DNA from: Deltaproteobacteria bacterium
Lineage (GTDB): Bacteria > Desulfobacterota > GWC2-55-46
DNA: 64,000 nucleotides
Direction: 5' to 3'
Assembly: GCA_016182655.1 (NCBI GenBank)
Contig: JACPGB010000024.1
Location: forward strand, 30,549 to 94,548
In this document: in pieces, positions 5,941 to 51,240 of the stretch
Layout of the letters: the number at the start of each line of letters is the position of its first letter
How positions within the stretch are numbered: the first letter of the stretch is position 1
Program-made: the position numbers and the translations under genes
Notes under the pieces: generated by a model
Database searches by the model: none
What the model was told of the DNA's origin: nothing
The model's input: only the letters and a program-made list of their open reading frames with translations

Positions 5941-7260
5941 ATGATCAAAAAGACCATAGCTTTTTTATTTGCCATTTTTTTGCTCCTGCCCTTTGGGGCC
6001 GAGGCCAAGGTCTACATAGACCTGGCCGCCCCCCAGGCAAAGAGGCTCCCTATCGCCATACAGGATTTTAAATTCCTCGGCGACGAATCGAAGGCAAAAG
6101 ACCCTTCCGTGGCAAATATAAGCGCGGAGCTCGCCGACACGCTTAGGTCCGACATAAGGTTCTCGGGCCTCTTCAATATAATCGAAAAAGACGCCTACCT
6201 CGAAGACGCCGCAAAGTCGAATCTCACCGACGACAAAATAGACTTCCGCCTCTGGAGGGCCATAGGGGCCGACACCCTCATAAAGGGCGGCTTTTCAATT
6301 GAAAAGGAAAAGCTCACGGTCGAGGTGCGCCTCTTCGACTCCATAACCGAAAAACAGGTCCTCGGGAAAAAGTACATAGGCTCGGTTGCGAACCCGCGGA
6401 GAGTCATGCACTACTTCGCCGACAATCTATACGAGGAGTTGACCGGCCGGAAGGGCATCTTCACGACCCGCATCATGTTCGTCTCGAACAGGGACGGGAA
6501 CAAGGAGATATTTGTCGCCGACTACGACGGCAGGAACGCCGTAAAGGTGACGCGGAATAAGTCCATTAACCTCTCCCCCCAGTGGTCGCCTGACGGCAAG
6601 AAGGCACTCTACGTCTCTTACAAGAAGGGCTGGCCCGCCCTCTTTCAGCTCGACCTGACGAACGGAGCGGACTCGGGCGTGTCCGCAAAACCCGGCATAA
6701 ACATAGGCGGCAGGTACTCGCCCGACGGCACCAGGGTGGCGCTTACCTTGAGCGGGGATAAATCCCCCGAGCTCTACACCCTCGACCTTTCAACGGGCGA
6801 ATACAAACGGCTCACCGACAACTACGGCATAGACGTCTCTCCCGCGTGGTCGCCGGACTCTTCCCGCATCGCGTATGTGTCAGATGTCGCTGGAAACCCT
6901 CATATTTTCATGTTAGAATTGTCGTCCGGGACCTCAAGGCGCATGACATTCGAGGGCAAGTACAACTCAAGCCCGGCCTGGTCCCCCGACGGTAGCAGGA
7001 TCGCCTTCTCCCGCTCGGATTCCGGGAGGTTCAATATCTGGGTGATGAACGCAGACGGTAGCAACTCTACCCAGCTCACCTTCGACGGCAACGACAGAAG
7101 CCCGTCATGGTCGCCTGACGGAAGGTATCTTATCTACAGCTCCACTGCAAAAGGGGTCTCGTCGCTCCGCATAGTGCGCTCCGACGGGACGGGGTCCATG
7201 AAGATAGAGACCGGGACGGGGAACGAAAAATCCCCGGTCTGGTCGCCTTATTTTCAATAG
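5941..7260 (+). CDS. tolB: TolB periplasmic beta-propeller protein
   Basis: Signal peptide, then repeated WSPDG beta-propeller blades (LSPQWSPDG, VSPAWSPDS, SSPAWSPDG, RSPSWSPDG). Confidence 0.9.
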   Translation: MIKKTIAFLFAIFLLLPFGAEAKVYIDLAAPQAKRLPIAIQDFKFLGDESKAKDPSVANISAELADTLRSDIRFSGLFNIIEKDAYLEDAAKSNLTDDKIDFRLWRAIGADTLIKGGFSIEKEKLTVEVRLFDSITEKQVLGKKYIGSVANPRRVMHYFADNLYEELTGRKGIFTTRIMFVSNRDGNKEIFVADYDGRNAVKVTRNKSINLSPQWSPDGKKALYVSYKKGWPALFQLDLTNGADSGVSAKPGINIGGRYSPDGTRVALTLSGDKSPELYTLDLSTGEYKRLTDNYGIDVSPAWSPDSSRIAYVSDVAGNPHIFMLELSSGTSRRMTFEGKYNSSPAWSPDGSRIAFSRSDSGRFNIWVMNADGSNSTQLTFDGNDRSPSWSPDGRYLIYSSTAKGVSSLRIVRSDGTGSMKIETGTGNEKSPVWSPYFQ

Positions 7261-7307
7261 ATATTAAAGGGCGTTTTTTTAACCTTTCACCAAAGGAGGT
7301 TTCTACG

Positions 7308-7913
7308 ATGAAAAGACTATTCGCGATAATCCCCATGCTCGTATTGAGCGGAACGCTCATCTATGGCTGCGGCGGCAAGAAGGCGGTAAACGACGACATC
7401 TCCGGAAAAGCCGCCGGGGAAGAGGCGGACAAGGACTCGGCCGTAGTCGTCCCCGAGGGCGGGCCGGTAGGAGAGGCCGTCACTTCCGAAGACCTCGGAG
7501 GCTCCGCAAAGACCGGCGGAAAGTATGTATCGCTCACACCCGGTGACACGCTCACGGTGCAGGCCGAGAAGGAAGGCCGGCTCTATACCATCTACTTCGA
7601 TTACGACATGTACTCCGTAAGGGACGCCGACAAGGACCACCTCTCGAACAACGCGAAGTGGCTCTCGCTCAATTCCGGCGTGGCCGTGCGCATCGAGGGA
7701 CACGCGGACGAGCGCGGCGAGACCGAGTACAACCTGGCGCTCGCCGACAAGCGCGCCAGATCGGTCAAGAAGTTCCTCGAGGACATGGGTGTAAAGACAG
7801 AGAGGCTGGATTCCATAAGCTTCGGCGAGGAAAAGCCCGCGGTAAGCGGACACGACGAGGATGCATGGGCAAAGAACAGGCGGGCCGAGTTCGTGATAAC
7901 GAGGACTAACTGA
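7308..7913 (+). CDS. pal: Peptidoglycan-associated lipoprotein Pal (OmpA-like domain)
   Basis: Lipobox LIYGCGG, then an OmpA C-terminal domain (VRIEGHADERGETEYNLALADKRARSV...NRRAEF). Confidence 0.9.
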   Translation: MKRLFAIIPMLVLSGTLIYGCGGKKAVNDDISGKAAGEEADKDSAVVVPEGGPVGEAVTSEDLGGSAKTGGKYVSLTPGDTLTVQAEKEGRLYTIYFDYDMYSVRDADKDHLSNNAKWLSLNSGVAVRIEGHADERGETEYNLALADKRARSVKKFLEDMGVKTERLDSISFGEEKPAVSGHDEDAWAKNRRAEFVITRTN

Positions 7914-43139: not shown

Positions 43140-43208
43140 GGATGCGGATAAAACCTCTCCAATACCCTCACCCTCTTTACCTTCGAAGGATCCGTGAGGC
43201 ATTATCAA

Positions 43209-43405
43209 GGCAGGTCTCCTGACTTACGGGTCATCCTAATCTCCGCAACCTTCCCGGCAATCAGCCAGTGGCTCAACATGCGGATTTCGTATCCGTTTAC
43301 AGTGGCGGGTCCGTTCCCGATTCTCCGGTGGCAGTCGCGGTTCTTCGTGATTGCCACACAGACCACGGGATTCCCTTTTCAAGCCCTTTTGGGGCGCCCT
43401 GATAT
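43209..43405 (-). promoter_or_regulatory. Cobalamin (B12) riboswitch aptamer, with a TTGACA-17-TAATGA promoter at about 43415-43445
   Basis: The minus-strand RNA contains AAAAGGGAAUCCCGUGG, GACCCGCCACUGUAA and the B12 box AGUCAGGAGACCUGCC. Plus-strand ORFs at 43015-43496 are artefacts. Confidence 0.8.
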
Positions 43406-43547
43406 GTGCGTGGTAATCATTACATTTCTAAAAAGCGCGTGTCAAGCAAATACCGGTCCTCGCCGGACGGGCAAAGTTCATATCGAGATGGCCTGATTAC
43501 TCTTTGCTCGTAGCTTCCGAAAAAACCCGCCAACGCCACCCGGATCG

Positions 43548-45320: not shown

Positions 45321-46385
45321 CTAAACCGCGAGGTCGACCTGCTGTATTGTGCCGGGGGCGCCGTTTTCGGCAAGATAGACGCCGGACCTCCTGACCTGGC
45401 CGAGGTCTGTGTTGTCGGCGCTCTTTAAATCAAAGCTTGTCGCGGCATAGCCGAGGTATATCGCGCCCACACCCTGCTCTTTAAGTGGCTTAAGCGCGTC
45501 CTTTGTCCATACAAAAAGGTCGTTAAAGACCGCGTCGTTCTCGTCTATCCACGAATTCTTGTCGGTGTCATAGGCCGAGAGCTCCTTGAACCCGTTCCCG
45601 GAGGACGGCCCGAAGAGCTCGCTTCCGTTATTCACTCTTCCGTCGCCGTTCTTGTCTATCGCCAGGAATCCGGAGCCCGGCGCGGCAAAGGAGATATTCT
45701 CCTCGCCCCCGTCGGAATCGAGGTCGAACGCGAACTTCATCGACGTAAGCTCAGCCGCTCTCCCGCCGAAATTGATGACGAGCGGGTCGACGCGCCTGGC
45801 GTCGCCTGCGCGCAAGTTTACGGTCTCTTCGGTGATGGAGGCCCTCTGCATGGTGAGTTCGAGCGAGAAACTTAATTCCTGCCCGTCGGCGGTCCTTATG
45901 ACGCCTTCGGCGCTGAAAGAGGTCTCTTCTATTTCGGCGTGAATGGCGCGAGAGTCGTACTCGAGCCCCCAACCATCGCGTCCGTCTGTAGCGTCAGCAA
46001 GCGCCTCCCCGGTCTTTTTTATATCAGCCGAAGGCTCCTTATCGACAGTCATCACCTTTATCTTCCTGCCTGACAAGGCCTCGATGAGGAGCTTCCTTAT
46101 GAAGGTGTCGTGGTCTACCCCGCCGTCTATCTCTATCTCTATCTCTTTTGCTCCCAGATACCGCTTACCCTGCCCTTTTATCGAGGCGAGGCGCGCCCTC
46201 GCCTCATCCGACAGCACGACCCTGTCTCCGGGCCTTGCGCCCGGCACGGCGTCAGGCGCCGGCCTCTCGTCCCCGACCCAGGCATTGAGCTTCTCGCTTT
46301 TCGCATCGCGCTCCACAAATGAGCGCGCCTCGGAAAAGAGTATGTTCGAGTCCGCTATGCGCATAAGAATATCCTTATTAGTCAT
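45321..46385 (-). CDS. Hypothetical protein with EF-hand/dockerin-like Ca-binding loops
   Basis: DLDSDGGEENISF, AIDKNGDGRVNNGSELFG and AYDTDKNSWIDEND loops. No signal peptide. Confidence 0.45.
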   Translation of the reverse strand: MTNKDILMRIADSNILFSEARSFVERDAKSEKLNAWVGDERPAPDAVPGARPGDRVVLSDEARARLASIKGQGKRYLGAKEIEIEIDGGVDHDTFIRKLLIEALSGRKIKVMTVDKEPSADIKKTGEALADATDGRDGWGLEYDSRAIHAEIEETSFSAEGVIRTADGQELSFSLELTMQRASITEETVNLRAGDARRVDPLVINFGGRAAELTSMKFAFDLDSDGGEENISFAAPGSGFLAIDKNGDGRVNNGSELFGPSSGNGFKELSAYDTDKNSWIDENDAVFNDLFVWTKDALKPLKEQGVGAIYLGYAATSFDLKSADNTDLGQVRRSGVYLAENGAPGTIQQVDLAV

Positions 46386-46877: not shown

Positions 46878-48236
46878 TCAGAAGGCCTTGATGGGTATTG
46901 AGACCGTCGCCTGCATATCCGGCGCGTCTGCGGTTATGCCGATCCCGAGCGATACGTCGAGCGAGACCTTTCTTGAAAGTATATAAGAGGCCCCTACCCT
47001 GAGCATACCGACGGTAAGGTTCGTCCCCGGAACATCCTCTCCCTGGAGCGTCGTCTCTCCGGTAAACCTCTGGTCCCACCCGAAGTTTATAGACGCATCG
47101 GGGTTCAGCGACAACCCCATGCCGAGCTGGAACCCGGCGGTATCTCCGGGGTCTATCCGCCCCGAGGTCTTGTGCGCGGGGAGGTTCGCGGTGTACGAAA
47201 ACCCGGCGTAGAGCGCGAGCGGGTCCCGGAGCTTGAGCATCGTCGCGGTCGCCTGTATGCCGTTAAAGCCCGTGCCGAGCGCAAGGTCGTCGTCCGTTAT
47301 GCCGAACGGGCTTTTCCCGGTCGTCGTCTTCCACCGGAGGCCCGTAAGCAGGTCCGGGAACCAACCCTTCTCCTTTAATGCCTGCCATGTGAGCCCGGCC
47401 TCGATGTCGCCGAAGCCGGTCGTCGAGTGTTTCGTCTCGACATTCTCGGTTGTGACCTTTTTTTCGTTTGCGTGGCTGTAAGGGACGTAGACCTCGGCCT
47501 GGAGGTCCCTGGGGAGCCCGAGCCGGAACGTCAGCGACGGCATATAGGTGTCCCTCCTTACCCGTTCGGAAGTTATGTCGCCGACGACGAGTATCGGGAG
47601 GATCGTGAAGCCGTCGACGATGACCTCTTCCGAGGACGAATGTATGTAGGTAAAGCCGGGCGAGACTTCGAGGGACCAGGGAGCAAGGAGCAGACCGCCC
47701 TTTTCTATGACCGTCCTTTCCAGCGCGGTACGGGCCGCGTCTTCGTCGGCGGACGAGGCCCGCTCCGGCGTTATCGCGCCGGCCTTTTGGGCGTTACGGA
47801 GGCCGTCGACCTCGAGCTCAAGCATCTCTATCCTTCTTTTAAGCTCCTCGGCCTCCCTTTCCCTTTGCCAGAGGATATGGGCGGGCGGCATCCTGAGCCC
47901 CTCGTCCGAGAGCGTCTCGTCGATCGGTTCCGTTGCAGGGGCCGCCTCCGGCACAAGCACCGTCTCGCTTTCCGATACCTGCTCCGATACGGGCTCGGCA
48001 TCAAGCGCCGGTTCAGGCTCGCTGTCCGTCTCGACGCCCTCGGGTCCGCGCTCTGATACGGGCTCCGCCTCTTCAGGGGCGTAGCCGGCCTCTTCCTGCG
48101 AATGGACCGTCTCTTCCGTTACGCCATCGTCAACCGAAGCCTCTTCCGAGAGAGCTACAGCCGGTAAAGCCGCGAGTAAAACGGAGAGGAGTACCGCGAT
48201 AAGCGAAAAAAAGTATGCTGTTTTCTTAAGGGCCAT
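46878..48236 (-). CDS. Outer-membrane beta-barrel with N-terminal acidic linker and coiled coil; FapF-like amyloid secretion channel (tentative)
   Basis: Signal peptide, Glu/Pro/Val-rich linker, coiled coil REREAEELKRRIEMLELEVDGLRNAQKA, barrel strands and C-terminal ...IPIKAF. The architecture matches FapF. Confidence 0.5.
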   Translation of the reverse strand: MALKKTAYFFSLIAVLLSVLLAALPAVALSEEASVDDGVTEETVHSQEEAGYAPEEAEPVSERGPEGVETDSEPEPALDAEPVSEQVSESETVLVPEAAPATEPIDETLSDEGLRMPPAHILWQREREAEELKRRIEMLELEVDGLRNAQKAGAITPERASSADEDAARTALERTVIEKGGLLLAPWSLEVSPGFTYIHSSSEEVIVDGFTILPILVVGDITSERVRRDTYMPSLTFRLGLPRDLQAEVYVPYSHANEKKVTTENVETKHSTTGFGDIEAGLTWQALKEKGWFPDLLTGLRWKTTTGKSPFGITDDDLALGTGFNGIQATATMLKLRDPLALYAGFSYTANLPAHKTSGRIDPGDTAGFQLGMGLSLNPDASINFGWDQRFTGETTLQGEDVPGTNLTVGMLRVGASYILSRKVSLDVSLGIGITADAPDMQATVSIPIKAF

Positions 48237-48969
48237 GCCTTGTCGGTGGGTCGGGCCTTATGCCGGATACCGCCCTTCCCAGGGCGGCGCCGTCGGTTAC
48301 GAGGAAGTCTTCCGCGCCAGGGTCCAGCCCGCCGGAGATCTCAGTCCCCTCTTTTTTCAGTACGAAACCTATGCCGTTTTTCCAGATCTCCAGAAACTTG
48401 TTCTTCCGCATGGTGACCGTTCCGTAGACCGGGTCCGAGAAGAGGACGCGGTCGCCGTACACCCCCCTGAACACCACGAAGTGGTCGTAATTTTTTATGT
48501 TAACGGGGATTATTGCCGGGGTTTTGAACCCTGTCAAGTCGTCGAGCGTAAGTTCCGCGTACCCTGCGCCCTTGTACCCGTACCTGTCCGAGAATTTTTT
48601 GAGGTCCATGAGAGAGAAGCCGCCCCTCGCCCTGACCTTCAAGGGGTCCGTGGTCTTCAATATCCCGATGATTATCTCGCTTTCCGGGACAGGGTCGTTG
48701 TAATGATACGTAAGGAGCGTGGAGAGCGCGGCGGCCCCGCAGCTCATGTCCCACTTCTGCTTAACGACGTTCGTCTGCCGGAGTTCCTGGAACGAGCGCA
48801 CCCCGGCCTCGGCCCTTGTCCCCCCTATTCCGAGCGGCAGTACGCCGCCGTCCGCCGCTTGCGCGGCCGACAGGACGATCAAGACTATCAAGGCGCATCT
48901 TGCGAGCAATCTTTGCCTCCTTGTAAAAAAAGGCCATGCCGGGGCGGGAAGCCCGGCATGGCCTCGCAT
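48226..48969 (-). CDS. Periplasmic papain-like peptidase, family C39 (FapD-like)
   Basis: Hydrophobic N-terminal signal or anchor. The catalytic Cys context QKWDMSCGAAALSTLLTYHY is typical of C39 bacteriocin-processing peptidase domains. Confidence 0.7.
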   Translation of the reverse strand: MRGHAGLPAPAWPFFTRRQRLLARCALIVLIVLSAAQAADGGVLPLGIGGTRAEAGVRSFQELRQTNVVKQKWDMSCGAAALSTLLTYHYNDPVPESEIIIGILKTTDPLKVRARGGFSLMDLKKFSDRYGYKGAGYAELTLDDLTGFKTPAIIPVNIKNYDHFVVFRGVYGDRVLFSDPVYGTVTMRKNKFLEIWKNGIGFVLKKEGTEISGGLDPGAEDFLVTDGAALGRAVSGIRPDPPTRHGP

Positions 48970-49899
48970 TTAGCGGGTCTGATACAGGTTGTTGTACTGG
49001 GAGGGGGCCGAGATCGTCTGGGCCGTCGCGGCGCCGCCGTTGACCGAGATCGAGCCGAGCGCGATGTTCACGCCGTTCAACGCGAGGCTCGACGAGGCGT
49101 TCGTCACGTTGAGCGCGGAAGCGCCCTGGAACGAATCACAGCCAAGGGTAACGTCGTCCTCCCTCGCGACCTCGAGGTCGGAGGAGTCGCCTGTGATGTA
49201 GGTGGCGACCGCGTAATCGAGCTCGGAGGTGGTCTCGCTTGACGAGCACGACTCGGCGGTCTCGAACGAGTTGTTCATCGCGGAGGAGCATGAAGCGCCC
49301 GCCGCCGTTACGCAGGCCGCGCCCCTGTCGGCGGTAGCGTAGCCTACGTCATAGACCTCGGCGTAGATCGTATTGTCCGTCCCATTTCCGGCCGCGGCCG
49401 CGCCCCTGCCGTAGTTGGCGTCGAGCGAGGCGGAATCGAGCGAGAACGAGAAGCCGTTCTCATAGGACAGCCCGTTTATGGCGATGCTCAGCGTCGCCGG
49501 GTCCACCCCCGCCGAGCTGTGCGTCACATCCGAGTAGCTGCTTGCTCTCTCGCCATAGTGATCGCCGTGAGTGATGTACCCCGCGTCGGCGTTTGCATAC
49601 TGCTCCATCGTGTTGTTCTGCTGGAAGTCTCCCGCGTAGCCGAGGAAGTTGACGCCGTTCGCGGCGAGGCTCTCCGCCGTATTCGAGATGTTCAGCGCCT
49701 GCGAGTCGGCAAGGGAGGAGCCGCTTAACGCCACTTCCCCTGTTTCGCTTATCGACGCCGAGGCGTCATTTCCTATTATGGCGCTCCCGGCGACGACGCC
49801 GTCGAGATCCCCGTCAGTCAGCGCCTTCGGGGCCGCGGAGGCCTGGGAGGCCCAGGCGAGGACCACGATGCCGAGAGACGCGACAATGAATCTTTTCAT
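48970..49899 (-). CDS. Secreted Ser/Ala/Asn/Gly-rich repeat protein, paralog 1 (candidate amyloid/fibre subunit)
   Basis: Signal peptide MKRFIVASLGIVVLAWASQASA, then ALTDGDLDGVVAGS, then repeats such as ALNISNTAESLAANGVNFLG / ALNVTNASSSLALNGVNIALG. C-terminus QYNNLYQTR. Confidence 0.55.
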   Translation of the reverse strand: MKRFIVASLGIVVLAWASQASAAPKALTDGDLDGVVAGSAIIGNDASASISETGEVALSGSSLADSQALNISNTAESLAANGVNFLGYAGDFQQNNTMEQYANADAGYITHGDHYGERASSYSDVTHSSAGVDPATLSIAINGLSYENGFSFSLDSASLDANYGRGAAAAGNGTDNTIYAEVYDVGYATADRGAACVTAAGASCSSAMNNSFETAESCSSSETTSELDYAVATYITGDSSDLEVAREDDVTLGCDSFQGASALNVTNASSSLALNGVNIALGSISVNGGAATAQTISAPSQYNNLYQTR

Positions 49900-49937
49900 T
49901 TAACGCTCCTTTCTGTTGTTAAGCCCGCTGACCGCCC

Positions 49938-50336
49938 TCAGAGACTGCCCGAGAGGTTCAACTGTTGCAGCGAGCCGACGCTTGAGTTGACGTTGATGTT
50001 GAGGTTCAATAGGACCTGTATCGCAGAGTCCACCGCGGTGATGTTGACGAGTGAGCTAAGGCCGCTCTGCGCGTTGCCGCTTATCGCGATCGACCCGAGC
50101 TTATCCGGCGCGCCCATGAGAAGGTCGAGCGAGCCGTCGCCCGAAACGTCAAAGTCGTCTCCCGCCTTGCTGAAGCTGAAGTACATGGTCGAGTCGACGA
50201 ACTCCGTGTTGACCGAGCCCGCCGCGACAGTCTCCATCTCTGCGTCCGATAGCGCCCTCCCGGCCATCGCGCCGCCGGGGTACAGGAGCGAGGCGGCGGC
50301 GAGTACCGAGAGGGCGAGCATCGCTTTTTTCTTCAT
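49938..50336 (-). CDS. Small secreted protein related to the repeat proteins
   Basis: Start MKKKAML at about 50336 with a GGAGGAGG RBS. Signal peptide, then ALSDAEMETVAAGS, then LSSLVNITAVDSAI and Asn/Leu repeats. Confidence 0.45.
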   Translation of the reverse strand: MKKKAMLALSVLAAASLLYPGGAMAGRALSDAEMETVAAGSVNTEFVDSTMYFSFSKAGDDFDVSGDGSLDLLMGAPDKLGSIAISGNAQSGLSSLVNITAVDSAIQVLLNLNINVNSSVGSLQQLNLSGSL

Positions 50337-50355
50337 ACCCCTCCTCCCGCCGCTC

Positions 50356-51240
50356 TTAGCGGTACTGGTAGACATTGTTGACCTGGCTTACGCAGTAGGA
50401 GGAGCCGCCCCACGCGACGTTCACCGCGTTCGCAACCGCGCTTGACGCCGCGTTCACGACATTAAAGGCCGATATGCCCTGCATGGCGTTGCCGGAAAGG
50501 CTCACGCTGTTGTTCGTCTCGACATCGAGCTCCGAGCCGTCGCCGGTCATGTAGGTCGCGTAGGCGTCCTGGATCTGGGATGTGGTCGAGTGCTCCTCGT
50601 TCTGGTTCTCGTTCTGATAATCGGTGTTAAGCGCCGCCGAGCAGGAAGAGCCCGCGCCGGTAACGCACGCCACCCCCTTGTCGGCCGAGGCGTTGCCTAC
50701 GTCGTAGAGCTCGGTATAGGCGTTGTCCCCGGCTACGGCCGAACCCCTGCCGTAGTTGGCGTCAAGGGAGGCCGAGTCGAGCGAGAATGAGAAGCCGTCC
50801 TCAAGCGTCACCCCGTTTATGGCGATGTTGAGGCTTGCGGGCTCGACCCCTGCCGAGCTGTGGAAGGTCTCGGAGGTATGATTGCTATTGGACGCATACG
50901 AGTCCTGGTGGTTCCAGTTCGATACGTAAGCCTGCTCGTCCTGCGTGATATTGTTGGCCTGGTCTATGACCGAGCTCGATCCGATGATGTTAACACCGTT
51001 GGCGACGAGGCTCTCGGAGGCGTTCGTGAAGTTCAGGGCCGAGGCGTCGGAGGCCGCATAGCCGGAGAGGTCCACGGTCCCGGTCGTCTGTATCGAGGCC
51101 GAGGAATCAAAGCCCACTATGGCGCTGCCTGCGGCGATGGAATCGAGCTCTCCGTCGGTAAGGGCCTTCGGGGCCGCGGACGCGTCAAACGCGAACGCCA
51201 AGAGGAACACTCCCATTGAGGCAAGGACCAATCTTTTCAT
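50356..51240 (-). CDS. Secreted Ser/Ala/Asn/Gly-rich repeat protein, paralog 2
   Basis: Start MKRLVLASMGV at 51238-51240 with an AAGGAG RBS. Has ALTDGELDSIAAGS, ALNFTNASESLVANGVNIIG, ISAFNVVNAASSAVANAVNVAWG and C-terminal VNNVYQYR. About half identical to paralog 1. Confidence 0.55.
   Translation of the reverse strand: MKRLVLASMGVFLLAFAFDASAAPKALTDGELDSIAAGSAIVGFDSSASIQTTGTVDLSGYAASDASALNFTNASESLVANGVNIIGSSSVIDQANNITQDEQAYVSNWNHQDSYASNSNHTSETFHSSAGVEPASLNIAINGVTLEDGFSFSLDSASLDANYGRGSAVAGDNAYTELYDVGNASADKGVACVTGAGSSCSAALNTDYQNENQNEEHSTTSQIQDAYATYMTGDGSELDVETNNSVSLSGNAMQGISAFNVVNAASSAVANAVNVAWGGSSYCVSQVNNVYQYR

Follow-up and report, generated by a model that had tools for sequence, protein, structure and literature searches.

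A five-gene cassette

This analysis concerns a cassette of five genes at positions 46878-51240 of a 64,000-nucleotide stretch of DNA, called here the window, from contig JACPGB010000024.1 of a Deltaproteobacteria bacterium (Desulfobacterota, lineage GWC2-55-46; GenBank assembly GCA_016182655.1). A preliminary description, made from the letters alone, saw in these genes a divergent export system of the Fap type, the system of Pseudomonas functional amyloid. That overall reading is supported, in the sense that the export core is like FapD and FapF and the substrates are the cassette's own; all the refuting tests that the description had proposed were carried out, and none went against it. Five co-directional minus-strand open reading frames are present as described, with intergenic gaps of -11 to +60 nucleotides, and all five products carry Sec signals, read from the sequence as a basic n-region, a hydrophobic core, and a cleavage site of the A-x-A type. 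The genes run in the order subA-small-subB-C39-barrel:

50356..51240, minus strand: subA, large subunit 1, 294 amino acids, an open reading frame at exactly these coordinates
49938..50336, minus strand: small subunit, 132 amino acids from the ATG at 50336 (the open reading frame reaches 50375)
48970..49899, minus strand: subB, large subunit 2, 309 amino acids
48924..48965, minus strand: hairpin, a GC-rich stem-loop between the subB stop codon and the ribosome-binding site of the peptidase gene
48226..48909, minus strand: periplasmic C39 cysteine peptidase of the FapD/FilB type, 227 amino acids from the TTG at 48909 (the open reading frame reaches 48969)
46878..48236, minus strand: outer-membrane transporter of the FapF type, 452 amino acids, its gene overlapping that of the peptidase by 11 nucleotides

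Two of the starts are chosen within longer reading frames. The small gene most likely begins at the ATG at 50336, which gives a product as long as its relatives in place of the 145 residues of the full frame. The peptidase most likely begins at the TTG at 48909, six bases after AAGGAGG, which gives an 18-residue signal peptide and a length close to that of its relatives (229-232 amino acids). The longest peptidase reading frame (48910-48969 extra) begins inside the hairpin, and a gene caller that prefers the longest frame would add about 20 spurious residues.

An export core of the FapD/FapF type

The fourth product had been called a periplasmic, papain-like C39 peptidase, and its catalytic residues are in place. 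It matches Pfam Peptidase_C39 at 1.1e-16, and the catalytic set Gln51/Cys57/His143/Asp159 (Gln71/Cys77/His163/Asp179 in the numbering of the full reading frame) is intact, lying within motifs in the right order: Gln-x5-Cys-Gly, His-Phe-Val-Val, and Asp-Pro. The comparison with FapD that the preliminary description had suggested gives a match to the NCBIfam FapD model at 2.4e-32, with 112 bits against an equivalog cut-off of 330, and FilB of Acinetobacter is nearly as close (6.5e-30, 104 bits against 475). Judged by sequence, then, the protein is a periplasmic C39 enzyme of the FapD/FilB type, at the level of a homologue. LahT150 and PCAT1, two double-glycine protease domains, are its nearest solved relatives outside Fap. 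The peptidase is, however, a stand-alone protein with its own signal peptide, and none of the genes of the cassette codes for an ABC transporter. Its subfamily has more than 1200 members, and the top 120 matches of the homologue search all belong to the window's own family, so that true FapD was not reached. A strictly written catalytic-tetrad pattern is satisfied by 32 of 38 family members, and the six misses fail on the strictness of the His or Asp motif.

The barrel is recognized in the same way. It matches NCBIfam FapF at 7.1e-25 (87.6 bits against an equivalog cut-off of 700) and FilC at 6e-19 (69 bits against 630), and its sequence finds the solved FapF chains 5o65, 5o67, and 5o68 at 4.4e-19 over residues 190-448. 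An AlphaFold model built with 90 homologues has a mean predicted local distance difference test score (pLDDT) of 78. In a fold search of the PDB with this model, the 18 best matches are all FapF (E 4e-22, template modelling (TM) score 0.77-0.86, root-mean-square deviation 2.7-4.8 Å). The protein has a signal peptide, ends in Phe, and is built of these parts:

47901..48146, minus strand: acidic disordered periplasmic linker, residues 31-112 (82 residues, of which 28 are Asp or Glu and 1 is Lys or Arg), of lineage-specific length
47790..47882, minus strand: predicted periplasmic coiled-coil helix, residues 119-149, from the model and the precedent of FapF
47703..47759, minus strand: helix just before the barrel, residues 160-178, a candidate plug helix; the alignment spans nearly the whole FapF-beta chain
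46881..47672, minus strand: beta-barrel domain, residues 189-452, with pLDDT mostly above 90

In the model the disordered acidic stretch extends over residues 25-115. The helix at 119-149 has an L/I/L/V/L core at positions a and d (heptad register assigned by eye), and FapF offers the precedent for a coiled coil in the periplasm (PMC5557850). Residues 160-178 are a candidate for the plug helix by their position, which matches that of the FapF plug. The acidic linker, the coiled coil, and the terminal Phe of the preliminary description are all present in the window protein, and the helices precede a barrel whose nearest predicted fold is FapF. By sequence and predicted fold the barrel is a genuine homologue of FapF.

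Both the long acidic linker and the terminal Phe are specific to the lineage. The barrel protein of a sister metagenome-assembled genome (MAG; locus L129, 5837-7060) is 88% identical to that of the window over aligned positions and lacks the terminal Phe, and the linker at 47901-48146 of the window is longer than its counterpart by 45 residues. Such a difference in length between sister genomes implies that the linker evolves quickly.

One might still suppose that the barrel is a solute channel of the COG4313 or Phenol_MetA_deg kind, taking up hydrophobic compounds and functionally unrelated to its neighbours. It has a marginal match to Pfam Phenol_MetA_deg (23.5 bits against a cut-off of 22), and the fold match ranked next after FapF is the COG4313 uptake channel 4rl8 (E 7e-13, TM score 0.74). 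However, FapF is far ahead of 4rl8 both by fold and by sequence, 4rl8 having no sequence match to the barrel at E ≤ 1. Moreover, the barrel gene overlaps the C39 gene and keeps synteny with it across all loci of the family, the protein has a predicted N-terminal coiled coil, and association with a C39 peptidase is unreported for COG4313 channels (PMC6173800). Fold, sequence, and synteny together speak for rejecting the uptake channel, and I give it practically no chance of being right. The preliminary description had named a stand-alone C39 peptidase and a coiled-coil barrel as the signature of FapD and FapF. Both are matched, at homologue level, and it is close to certain that the two genes encode an export core of this type.

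A separate family of substrates

The other three products had been described as paralogues rich in Ser, Ala, Asn, and Gly. Two of them, subA and subB, are indeed paralogues, 53% identical. The third is better called a small relative, whose N-terminal region is common to both. The four residues make up about 48% of each large subunit and about 45% of the small protein. The parts of the three are:

subA: Sec signal peptide at residues 1-22 (cut between ..DASA and AP); leader at 23-38; N-module at about 40-101; variable core with a conserved Cys pair; C-module at about 230-292
subB: as subA, with signal peptide, leader, N-module, core, and C-module
small subunit: signal peptide (cut between ..GAMA and GR); leader LSDAEMETVAAG; a single C-terminal module (..NAQSGLSSLVNITAVDSAIQVLLNLNINVNS..)

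The repeat motif ALN.TNAS.SL.ANGVN of the preliminary description is confirmed, with two copies in each large subunit, at residues 68 and 258 of subA and 68 and 262 of subB. It is the core of a module of about 60 residues that stands at both ends of these proteins. The N-module and C-module of subA resemble each other at z = 13.8, with none of 1000 shuffles as good, and those of subB at z = 8.2. A third version of the module makes up the C-terminal half of the small protein (z = 7.0 against the C-module of subA). Outside the leader, the only invariant residues among 110 aligned large subunits are Asn and Gln (N84, Q94, N96, Q100, N260, N274, Q286, and N288), and the small family has its own such set (Q90, N111, Q125, and N127). 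In one metagenomic relative of 1283 amino acids, P0406, the same signal peptide and leader (FLSDKDMDSVVAG) stand ahead of 17 matched stretches of a module of the small-protein type.

None of the three proteins matches a Pfam or NCBIfam model at E ≤ 1, FapB, FapC, FapE, and FilA included. The NCBIfam library is equal to the task, for it detects the divergent FapB, C, D, E, and F of Aeromonas caviae and the FilA, FilC, FilD, FilE, and FilF of Acinetobacter. (An A. caviae record, L042 or NZ_AP026896.1, appears in PLSDB as 'Aeromonas caviae plasmid pKAM479_3'; with 4.94 Mb and a complete fap operon, it must evidently be a chromosome under the wrong label, as must several multi-megabase 'plasmid' records of A. 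baumannii.) Comparison of profiles by hhalign gives nothing significant against Aeromonas FapC (E 0.36) or against FapB (E 0.013, 3% probability), and against FapE (E 0.13) and FilA (E 0.46) the leader is the sole stretch aligned. The 114 database relatives of subA are all named 'hypothetical', and none has a Pfam domain; the small protein has relatives in 155 representative clusters among 1.84 billion proteins. A database protein identical to subA, P0001, comes from a Deltaproteobacteria MAG. One match of the small-protein search, P0499, was set aside as an FG-GAP repeat protein of no relevance. An AlphaFold model of subA is all-beta and weak (mean pLDDT 62), and a Foldseek search of the PDB with it finds nothing below E 0.04. 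The ordinary globular adhesin that would have spoken against the preliminary description is not what this model depicts.

Could the cassette nonetheless be a divergent canonical Fap operon, in which subA would be FapC, subB FapB, and the small protein FapE? It is true that FapD and FapF are the best-matching named families and that the Asn/Gln-rich repeats are reminiscent of those in Fap. But the models that detect divergent Aeromonas proteins pass over these ones, the profile comparisons just given find only the leader or nothing, and even the peptidase and the barrel fall far short of the cut-offs of their families. Then there are the two modules of the large subunits, to be set against the three imperfect repeats of FapB and FapC, by which published screens recognize Fap operons; repeat number and synteny are described as almost invariant in canonical Fap operons (PMC12822426). 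At the sequence level this alternative is effectively refuted, and I consider it very improbable overall. The preliminary description had noted a gene order unlike that of Fap and no obvious FapA or FapE. The order does differ, and FapA, FapB, FapC, and FapE are all absent from a search whose positive control passed. On sequence comparison the substrates are a separate family without Pfam or NCBIfam annotation. Since they match no model of FapB, FapC, FapE, or FilA, the cassette should not be called a Fap operon; it is a system apart that uses the same kind of export core.

Distribution and gene order

A scan for the cassette, with one genome taken per species, yielded 37 loci from Acidobacteriota, Desulfobacterota, Gammaproteobacteria, and Alphaproteobacteria. 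Their sources include Desulfuromusa, Desulfobacteraceae, Marinobacter iranensis, Ectothiorhodospira haloalkaliphila ATCC 51935, Thioalkalispiraceae, Pseudomonadales, Granulicella sp. L60, Edaphobacter, other Acidobacteriaceae, and an Acetobacteraceae MAG. The habitats represented are those of soil Acidobacteriota, of sulfate and metal reducers, and of marine or haloalkaliphilic Gammaproteobacteria. Some members can be cultured (E. haloalkaliphila ATCC 51935, M. iranensis 71-i, and Granulicella sp. L60), and Tunturiibacter gelidoferens, known only from its barrel homologue, is probably another.

One to three large-subunit genes, then the small gene, then C39, then barrel: this is the order in 33 of the 37 loci, the other four lying on contigs that are short or broken near the subunit genes. 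The C39 gene stands beside genes for leader-bearing precursors in 33 of 37, and the barrel gene is adjacent to the C39 gene in all. In many loci the small gene runs directly up to the peptidase gene or into it (L001, L003, and L016, for example), and in a Deltaproteobacteria MAG (L028, 5296-10851) the block small-C39-barrel is divergent from the large-subunit genes. It follows that the small protein travels with the machinery and not with the major subunits. The order subA-small-subB in the window is a local variant, common to the sister MAG, which has the same cytochrome bc1 neighbourhood.

A leader behind the signal peptide

The most informative feature of the cassette was missed by the preliminary description. 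Straight after the Sec signal peptide, each substrate carries a 12-residue leader of the double-glycine type, L-x-D-x-x-L-D-x-I/V-T-A-G:

51127..51162, minus strand: subA leader LTDGELDSIAAG, residues 27-38, with the C39 cut predicted after Gly38
50217..50252, minus strand: leader of the small subunit
49786..49821, minus strand: subB leader LTDGDLDGVVAG, residues 27-38
Leader stretch up to the predicted cut: APKALTDGELDSIAAG, then SAIVG
Peptide around the predicted cleavage site: APKALTDGELDSIAAGSAIVGFD

Among 110 aligned homologues the leader columns are occupied as follows:

Column 27: L 98, M 9
Column 32: L 91, M 19
Column 33: D 89, E 10
Column 35: I 57, V 47
Column 36: T 99
Column 37: A 110/110
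Column 38: G 94, A 15

Counted back from Gly38, the hydrophobic residues fall at -12, -7, and -4 (L/M27, L/M32, and I/V35), and each is kept in 108-110 of the 110 sequences. This is the spacing by which the helical leader in a co-crystal with LahT150 puts Leu-12, Leu-7, and Val-4 into the hydrophobic groove of the C39 domain (PMC6363468). In the AlphaFold model of subA a short helix covers residues 29-34, and pLDDT drops below 50 at residues 35-38. Past position 38 comes a spacer of variable length and then a conserved strand, AIVGN; in the window proteins the leader ends only one residue before that strand.

Written as a regular expression, the leader is matched by 33 of 35 small-protein reading frames and 42 of 55 large-subunit reading frames in the related loci. 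Many of the misses belong to a third class of subunit, 530-625 amino acids long, with ..LSDxELAxVSGGG, a literal double glycine, or ..ISGAG. In all six frames of the 64-kb window, only the three substrates matched. The pair at -2/-1, which in double-glycine leaders is Gly-Gly, Gly-Ala, or Gly-Ser, is Ala-Gly in the window and most relatives, and Gly-Gly in the third-class subunits and in the FapE-like proteins of other systems. A literature search, in which subscription journals were thinly covered and an earlier description may have been passed over, turned up no paper on the leader helix or the substrate family.

That the peptidase cleaves the leader is the probable reading. The alternative is that the leader is a tag for recognition or chaperoning and is never cut, the peptidase's true target being the periplasmic linker of the barrel, whose cleavage would gate the pore. 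Rouse et al. suggest that FapD may cleave FapF near the junction of linker and barrel (PMC5557850), some C39-like domains act as chaperones only (PMC5557850; PMC5135000), and the window barrel has a long disordered linker. Against this, the leader ends in the pair of small residues anticipated at a scissile site, and after it come a spacer of variable length and a drop in pLDDT. The window peptidase has its catalytic tetrad intact, most of the family fits the strict pattern for it, and the barrel linker lacks the leader motif and is hypervariable even between sister genomes. I regard the uncut tag as improbable.

FapE carries the leader too

What FapD acts on has been a question since the Fap machinery was described. 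The catalytic Cys of FapD is required for secretion, and the authors of that work found no canonical C39 sequences in Fap proteins and considered the target of FapD unclear; FapE was the only Fap protein without N-terminal peptides in their mass spectrometry, which is evidence that its N-terminus is processed (PMC5557850). Later reviews treat the substrate as undetermined or 'thought to' be FapE. This literature fits the counts given below without saying as much itself.

To gather relatives, the FapF sequence was copied from a PDB alignment and used in tblastn, which led to Fap, Fil, and other FapD/FapF loci. A metagenome scan added 80 canonical loci of the Pseudomonas type (L049-L128). In these, a generic form of the leader was counted within the first 90 residues of the proteins:

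FapE: 72/72 (distinct sequences)
FapB: 3/62
FapC: 0/55
FapD: 2/73
FapF: 0/77

The FapE leader has the form L/I/V-K-D-x-E-L/M-x-x-L-R-G-R, sits right behind the signal peptide, and has Arg at -1 (for example L051, 3799-4542). The corresponding candidate target peptide of FapD in Pseudomonas is FKPIELKDSEMAELRGRYVMPGR, in which a cut would fall after R-G-R or R-G. No paper mentioning a leader in FapE appeared in the literature search, with the same thin coverage of subscription journals.

With a leader on every substrate of the new family and in all 72 FapE sequences, the likely answer to what a FapD-type peptidase acts on can be read from sequence. The question becomes testable, because the leader predicts both the scissile site and the recognition residues. 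I would go further, tentatively, to the suggestion that a double-glycine-type leader behind a Sec signal peptide may be the general periplasmic tag for recognition and cleavage in all secretion systems of the FapD/FapF type ('hybrid' systems). This has somewhat less than an even chance of being true. If it is, FapE would be the substrate of FapD in Pseudomonas, and FilA would be marked as a substrate in Acinetobacter.

The hairpin between subunit and export genes

The hairpin at 48924-48965 (minus strand) has about 14-15 pairs followed by U7. Its folding free energy is -29.8 kcal/mol (z -3.7), and none of 200 shuffles is as stable. At the same junction in the sister MAG (L129, 5107-5140) there is a hairpin of other sequence but equal strength, with a free energy of -38.8 kcal/mol (z -3.6) and no U-run. 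The window hairpin is probably a terminator-like or attenuator-like element, or one that stabilizes the mRNA. A terminator after the major subunit gene was considered as a family-wide feature and rejected, since a strict test for a hairpin plus T-run was passed by 1 of 16 junctions across the family; the hairpin is for the same reason treated as clade-specific. Upstream of subA, the 400 nucleotides searched for riboswitches or other known RNA motifs gave only sub-threshold matches, and a scan for sigma-70 promoters gave nothing convincing.

A proposal for leader-dependent secretion

I propose that the cassette encodes a two-step, Sec-dependent system for secreting a surface polymer, in which an export core of the FapD/FapF type serves substrates of its own. 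The probability that this whole chain is right I put at roughly 0.6. In the first step, all five products would reach the periplasm by their Sec signal peptides, whose removal would leave a propeptide of about 16 residues on subA, subB, and the small protein, with Leu at -12, Leu/Met at -7, Ile/Val at -4, and Ala-Gly at -2/-1. The periplasmic C39 peptidase would bind this leader and cut after Ala37-Gly38. In the second step, the mature subunits, largely unfolded, would cross the FapF-like barrel, which, like the 12-strand FapF, is probably a trimer and would be gated by its own plug helix and coiled coil.

Outside the cell, the terminal modules of about 60 residues may stack head to tail through ladders of Asn and Gln, giving a beta-rich fibre or matrix polymer, and the single-module small protein may serve as nucleator, anchor, or cap. 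Removal of the leader may also unmask an N-terminus competent for polymerization, which would hold assembly back while the subunits are still in the periplasm. Standing after the third subunit gene, the hairpin probably lets more subunit be made relative to machinery, whether by attenuation or by protection of the mRNA 3' end.

Several observations weigh against this proposal in whole or in part. The subA model is weak, has no confident beta-solenoid, and has no significant structural neighbour. Some globular folding is suggested by the long variable core of the large subunits and their conserved pair of Cys residues. No homology of the substrates to FapB, FapC, CsgA, or FilA can be detected, so amyloid character cannot be transferred by homology. 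Position -2 of the leader is Ala, whereas canonical double-glycine sites almost always have Gly there. Beyond the immediate clade the hairpin is not conserved, 1 of 16 junctions having passed, and its U-run is missing in the sister genome. Finally, the barrel linker of Pseudomonas has also been proposed as the target of FapD (PMC5557850).

The first three of these points serve equally the main alternative, that a FapD/FapF-type core exports leader-tagged proteins that do not polymerize, such as monomeric adhesins, a surface coat, or secreted effectors or toxins. The weak and non-significant fold matches of the subunit model, to pore-forming toxins rich in beta-hairpins and to phage proteins, point the same way. 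Against this alternative stand the homologous modules at both termini, the restriction of the invariant residues to Asn and Gln, and the dedicated single-module partner in every operon. The relative P0406 takes the multiplication of modules further still. Each operon has one to three large-subunit genes, ahead of the export genes, and all characterized relatives of the export core handle fibre subunits (PMC5557850). I judge the non-polymerizing alternative unlikely, perhaps a chance in four. The formation of fibres, as a part of the proposal by itself, is plausible and a little short of an even bet.

The preliminary description spoke of an undescribed fibre or amyloid secretion system. The substrates and their leader are undescribed in the literature searched, and they are what is new here. 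The words fibre and amyloid stay conditional, and co-located fapD and fapF homologues outside Fap operons were already known: in 2018 they were noted in five further phyla, without substrates (PMC6173800). If the leader is indeed the general tag suggested above, leader-activated surface fibres, so far uncharacterized, would be widespread in Acidobacteriota, Desulfobacterota, and Proteobacteria, with removal of the leader as the event that licenses both export and polymerization.

Genomic setting

The genes flanking the cassette are unrelated to it. Upstream lies cytochrome bc1, and downstream are a 354-amino-acid protein, a SpoU methylase, and a diadenylate cyclase. The gene for the 354-residue protein (45321-46385, minus strand) lies 490 nucleotides downstream of the barrel gene; its product has no signal peptide, has Asp-rich DxDxDG-like stretches, and found no match in the Pfam scan. 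In the sister MAG the orthologue bears the tag PF26745 (SPM), and a cobalamin adenosyltransferase gene is inserted between its gene and that of the barrel. Elsewhere in the window are:

43192-43415, minus strand: cobalamin riboswitch, 100.9 bits
27509-27637, minus strand: Moco/Tuco riboswitch, 69.1 bits
10304-10376, minus strand: tRNA, inside a low-GC stretch at 10-12 kb (GC 0.44, compared with about 0.58 elsewhere), possibly an island or a site of insertion

Comparison with known systems

The comparison with curli (CsgA/B, CsgG/E/F) is a functional analogy. Curli too has Sec-dependent, unfolded, Asn/Gln-rich subunits, a major subunit with a small nucleator, and a dedicated outer-membrane channel. 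No component is homologous, however, there is no protease step, and CsgG is a nonameric lipoprotein channel.

Double-glycine exporters of the PCAT/AMS type, which handle bacteriocins, lanthipeptides, and ComC, share with the cassette the protease family and the geometry of the leader, hydrophobic at -12, -7, and -4 with small residues at -2 and -1. Their protease domain is fused to a cytoplasmic ABC transporter, whereas that of the window is a free-standing periplasmic protein. The window leader stands behind a Sec signal peptide and has Ala at -2, and the cargo of the window family is a protein of 130-600 amino acids, with export proposed to go through an outer-membrane barrel.

In the Fil system of Acinetobacter baumannii, a putative pilus locus (filABCDEF; NCBIfam NF050077-81 and NF033645), FilB and FilC resemble the window proteins about as closely as do FapD and FapF, and FilA has ..MDDAALSAATGQ.. 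after its signal peptide, aligning with the window leader. Beyond the leader, however, FilA is not homologous to the window substrates, and the cassette lacks FilD (FadL-like), FilE, and FilF. The Fil literature found covers FilF only, as a protein over-expressed in pellicles and a vaccine candidate; the search found none for FilB or FilC. In A. baumannii VB31459 (L043, 6565-7404), filB is split into two unannotated reading frames, 6565-7002 and 7012-7404, possibly a frameshift or pseudogene.

With Fap itself the cassette shares a periplasmic C39 peptidase and a barrel that has a periplasmic coiled coil and a helix before the barrel, at the position of the FapF plug. In both systems all components are Sec-dependent, and the secreted subunits are Asn/Gln-rich, one large and one or more smaller. 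A leader behind the signal peptide is common to the window substrates and FapE. The differences are as plain. Homologues of FapA, FapB, FapC, and FapE are lacking, and the subunits have two terminal modules where those of Fap have three imperfect repeats. The leader is on every window substrate, the major ones included, whereas in Fap it is on FapE only. The window order is subunits-C39-barrel with no gene between the last two, where fapE sits in Fap, and an acidic linker precedes the coiled coil of the window barrel.

Other FapD/FapF operons also emerged from the search:

Polymorphobacter: L046, 3551-7930
Croceicoccus: L047, 3627-7891
Cupriavidus metallidurans CH34: L045, 2273-7891
Vibrio plasmid: L044, 6815-11604 (its C39 gene appears to be split)

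Like the window cassette, these have a large repetitive protein rich in Asn and Ser, a small protein, a C39 peptidase, and a barrel, and their small protein is related to the small family of the window at the level of profiles (hhalign 85%, E 6.5e-6). None of the Polymorphobacter and Cupriavidus substrates tested was recognized by the Fap models. These operons differ in having an extra FapE-like gene between the C39 and barrel genes, and the FapE-like proteins, those of the sphingomonads and Vibrio included, have canonical ..RGG leaders (ITDYELATMRGG, LSEEVLARQRGG, and LSNSSLEEYRGG). In the sphingomonad operons the major repeat proteins are without a leader. Their large subunits, moreover, are short-period tandem repeats rich in Asn, Ser, and Asp, not proteins with two terminal modules.

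The export core is evidently modular, for FapD and FapF are found with at least four unrelated types of substrate: FapB and FapC, FilA, the short-period Asn/Ser repeat proteins, and the two-module proteins of the window family. The cassette is best filed among the 'hybrid' secretion systems of the FapD/FapF type, as one that serves a previously unannotated family of substrates.

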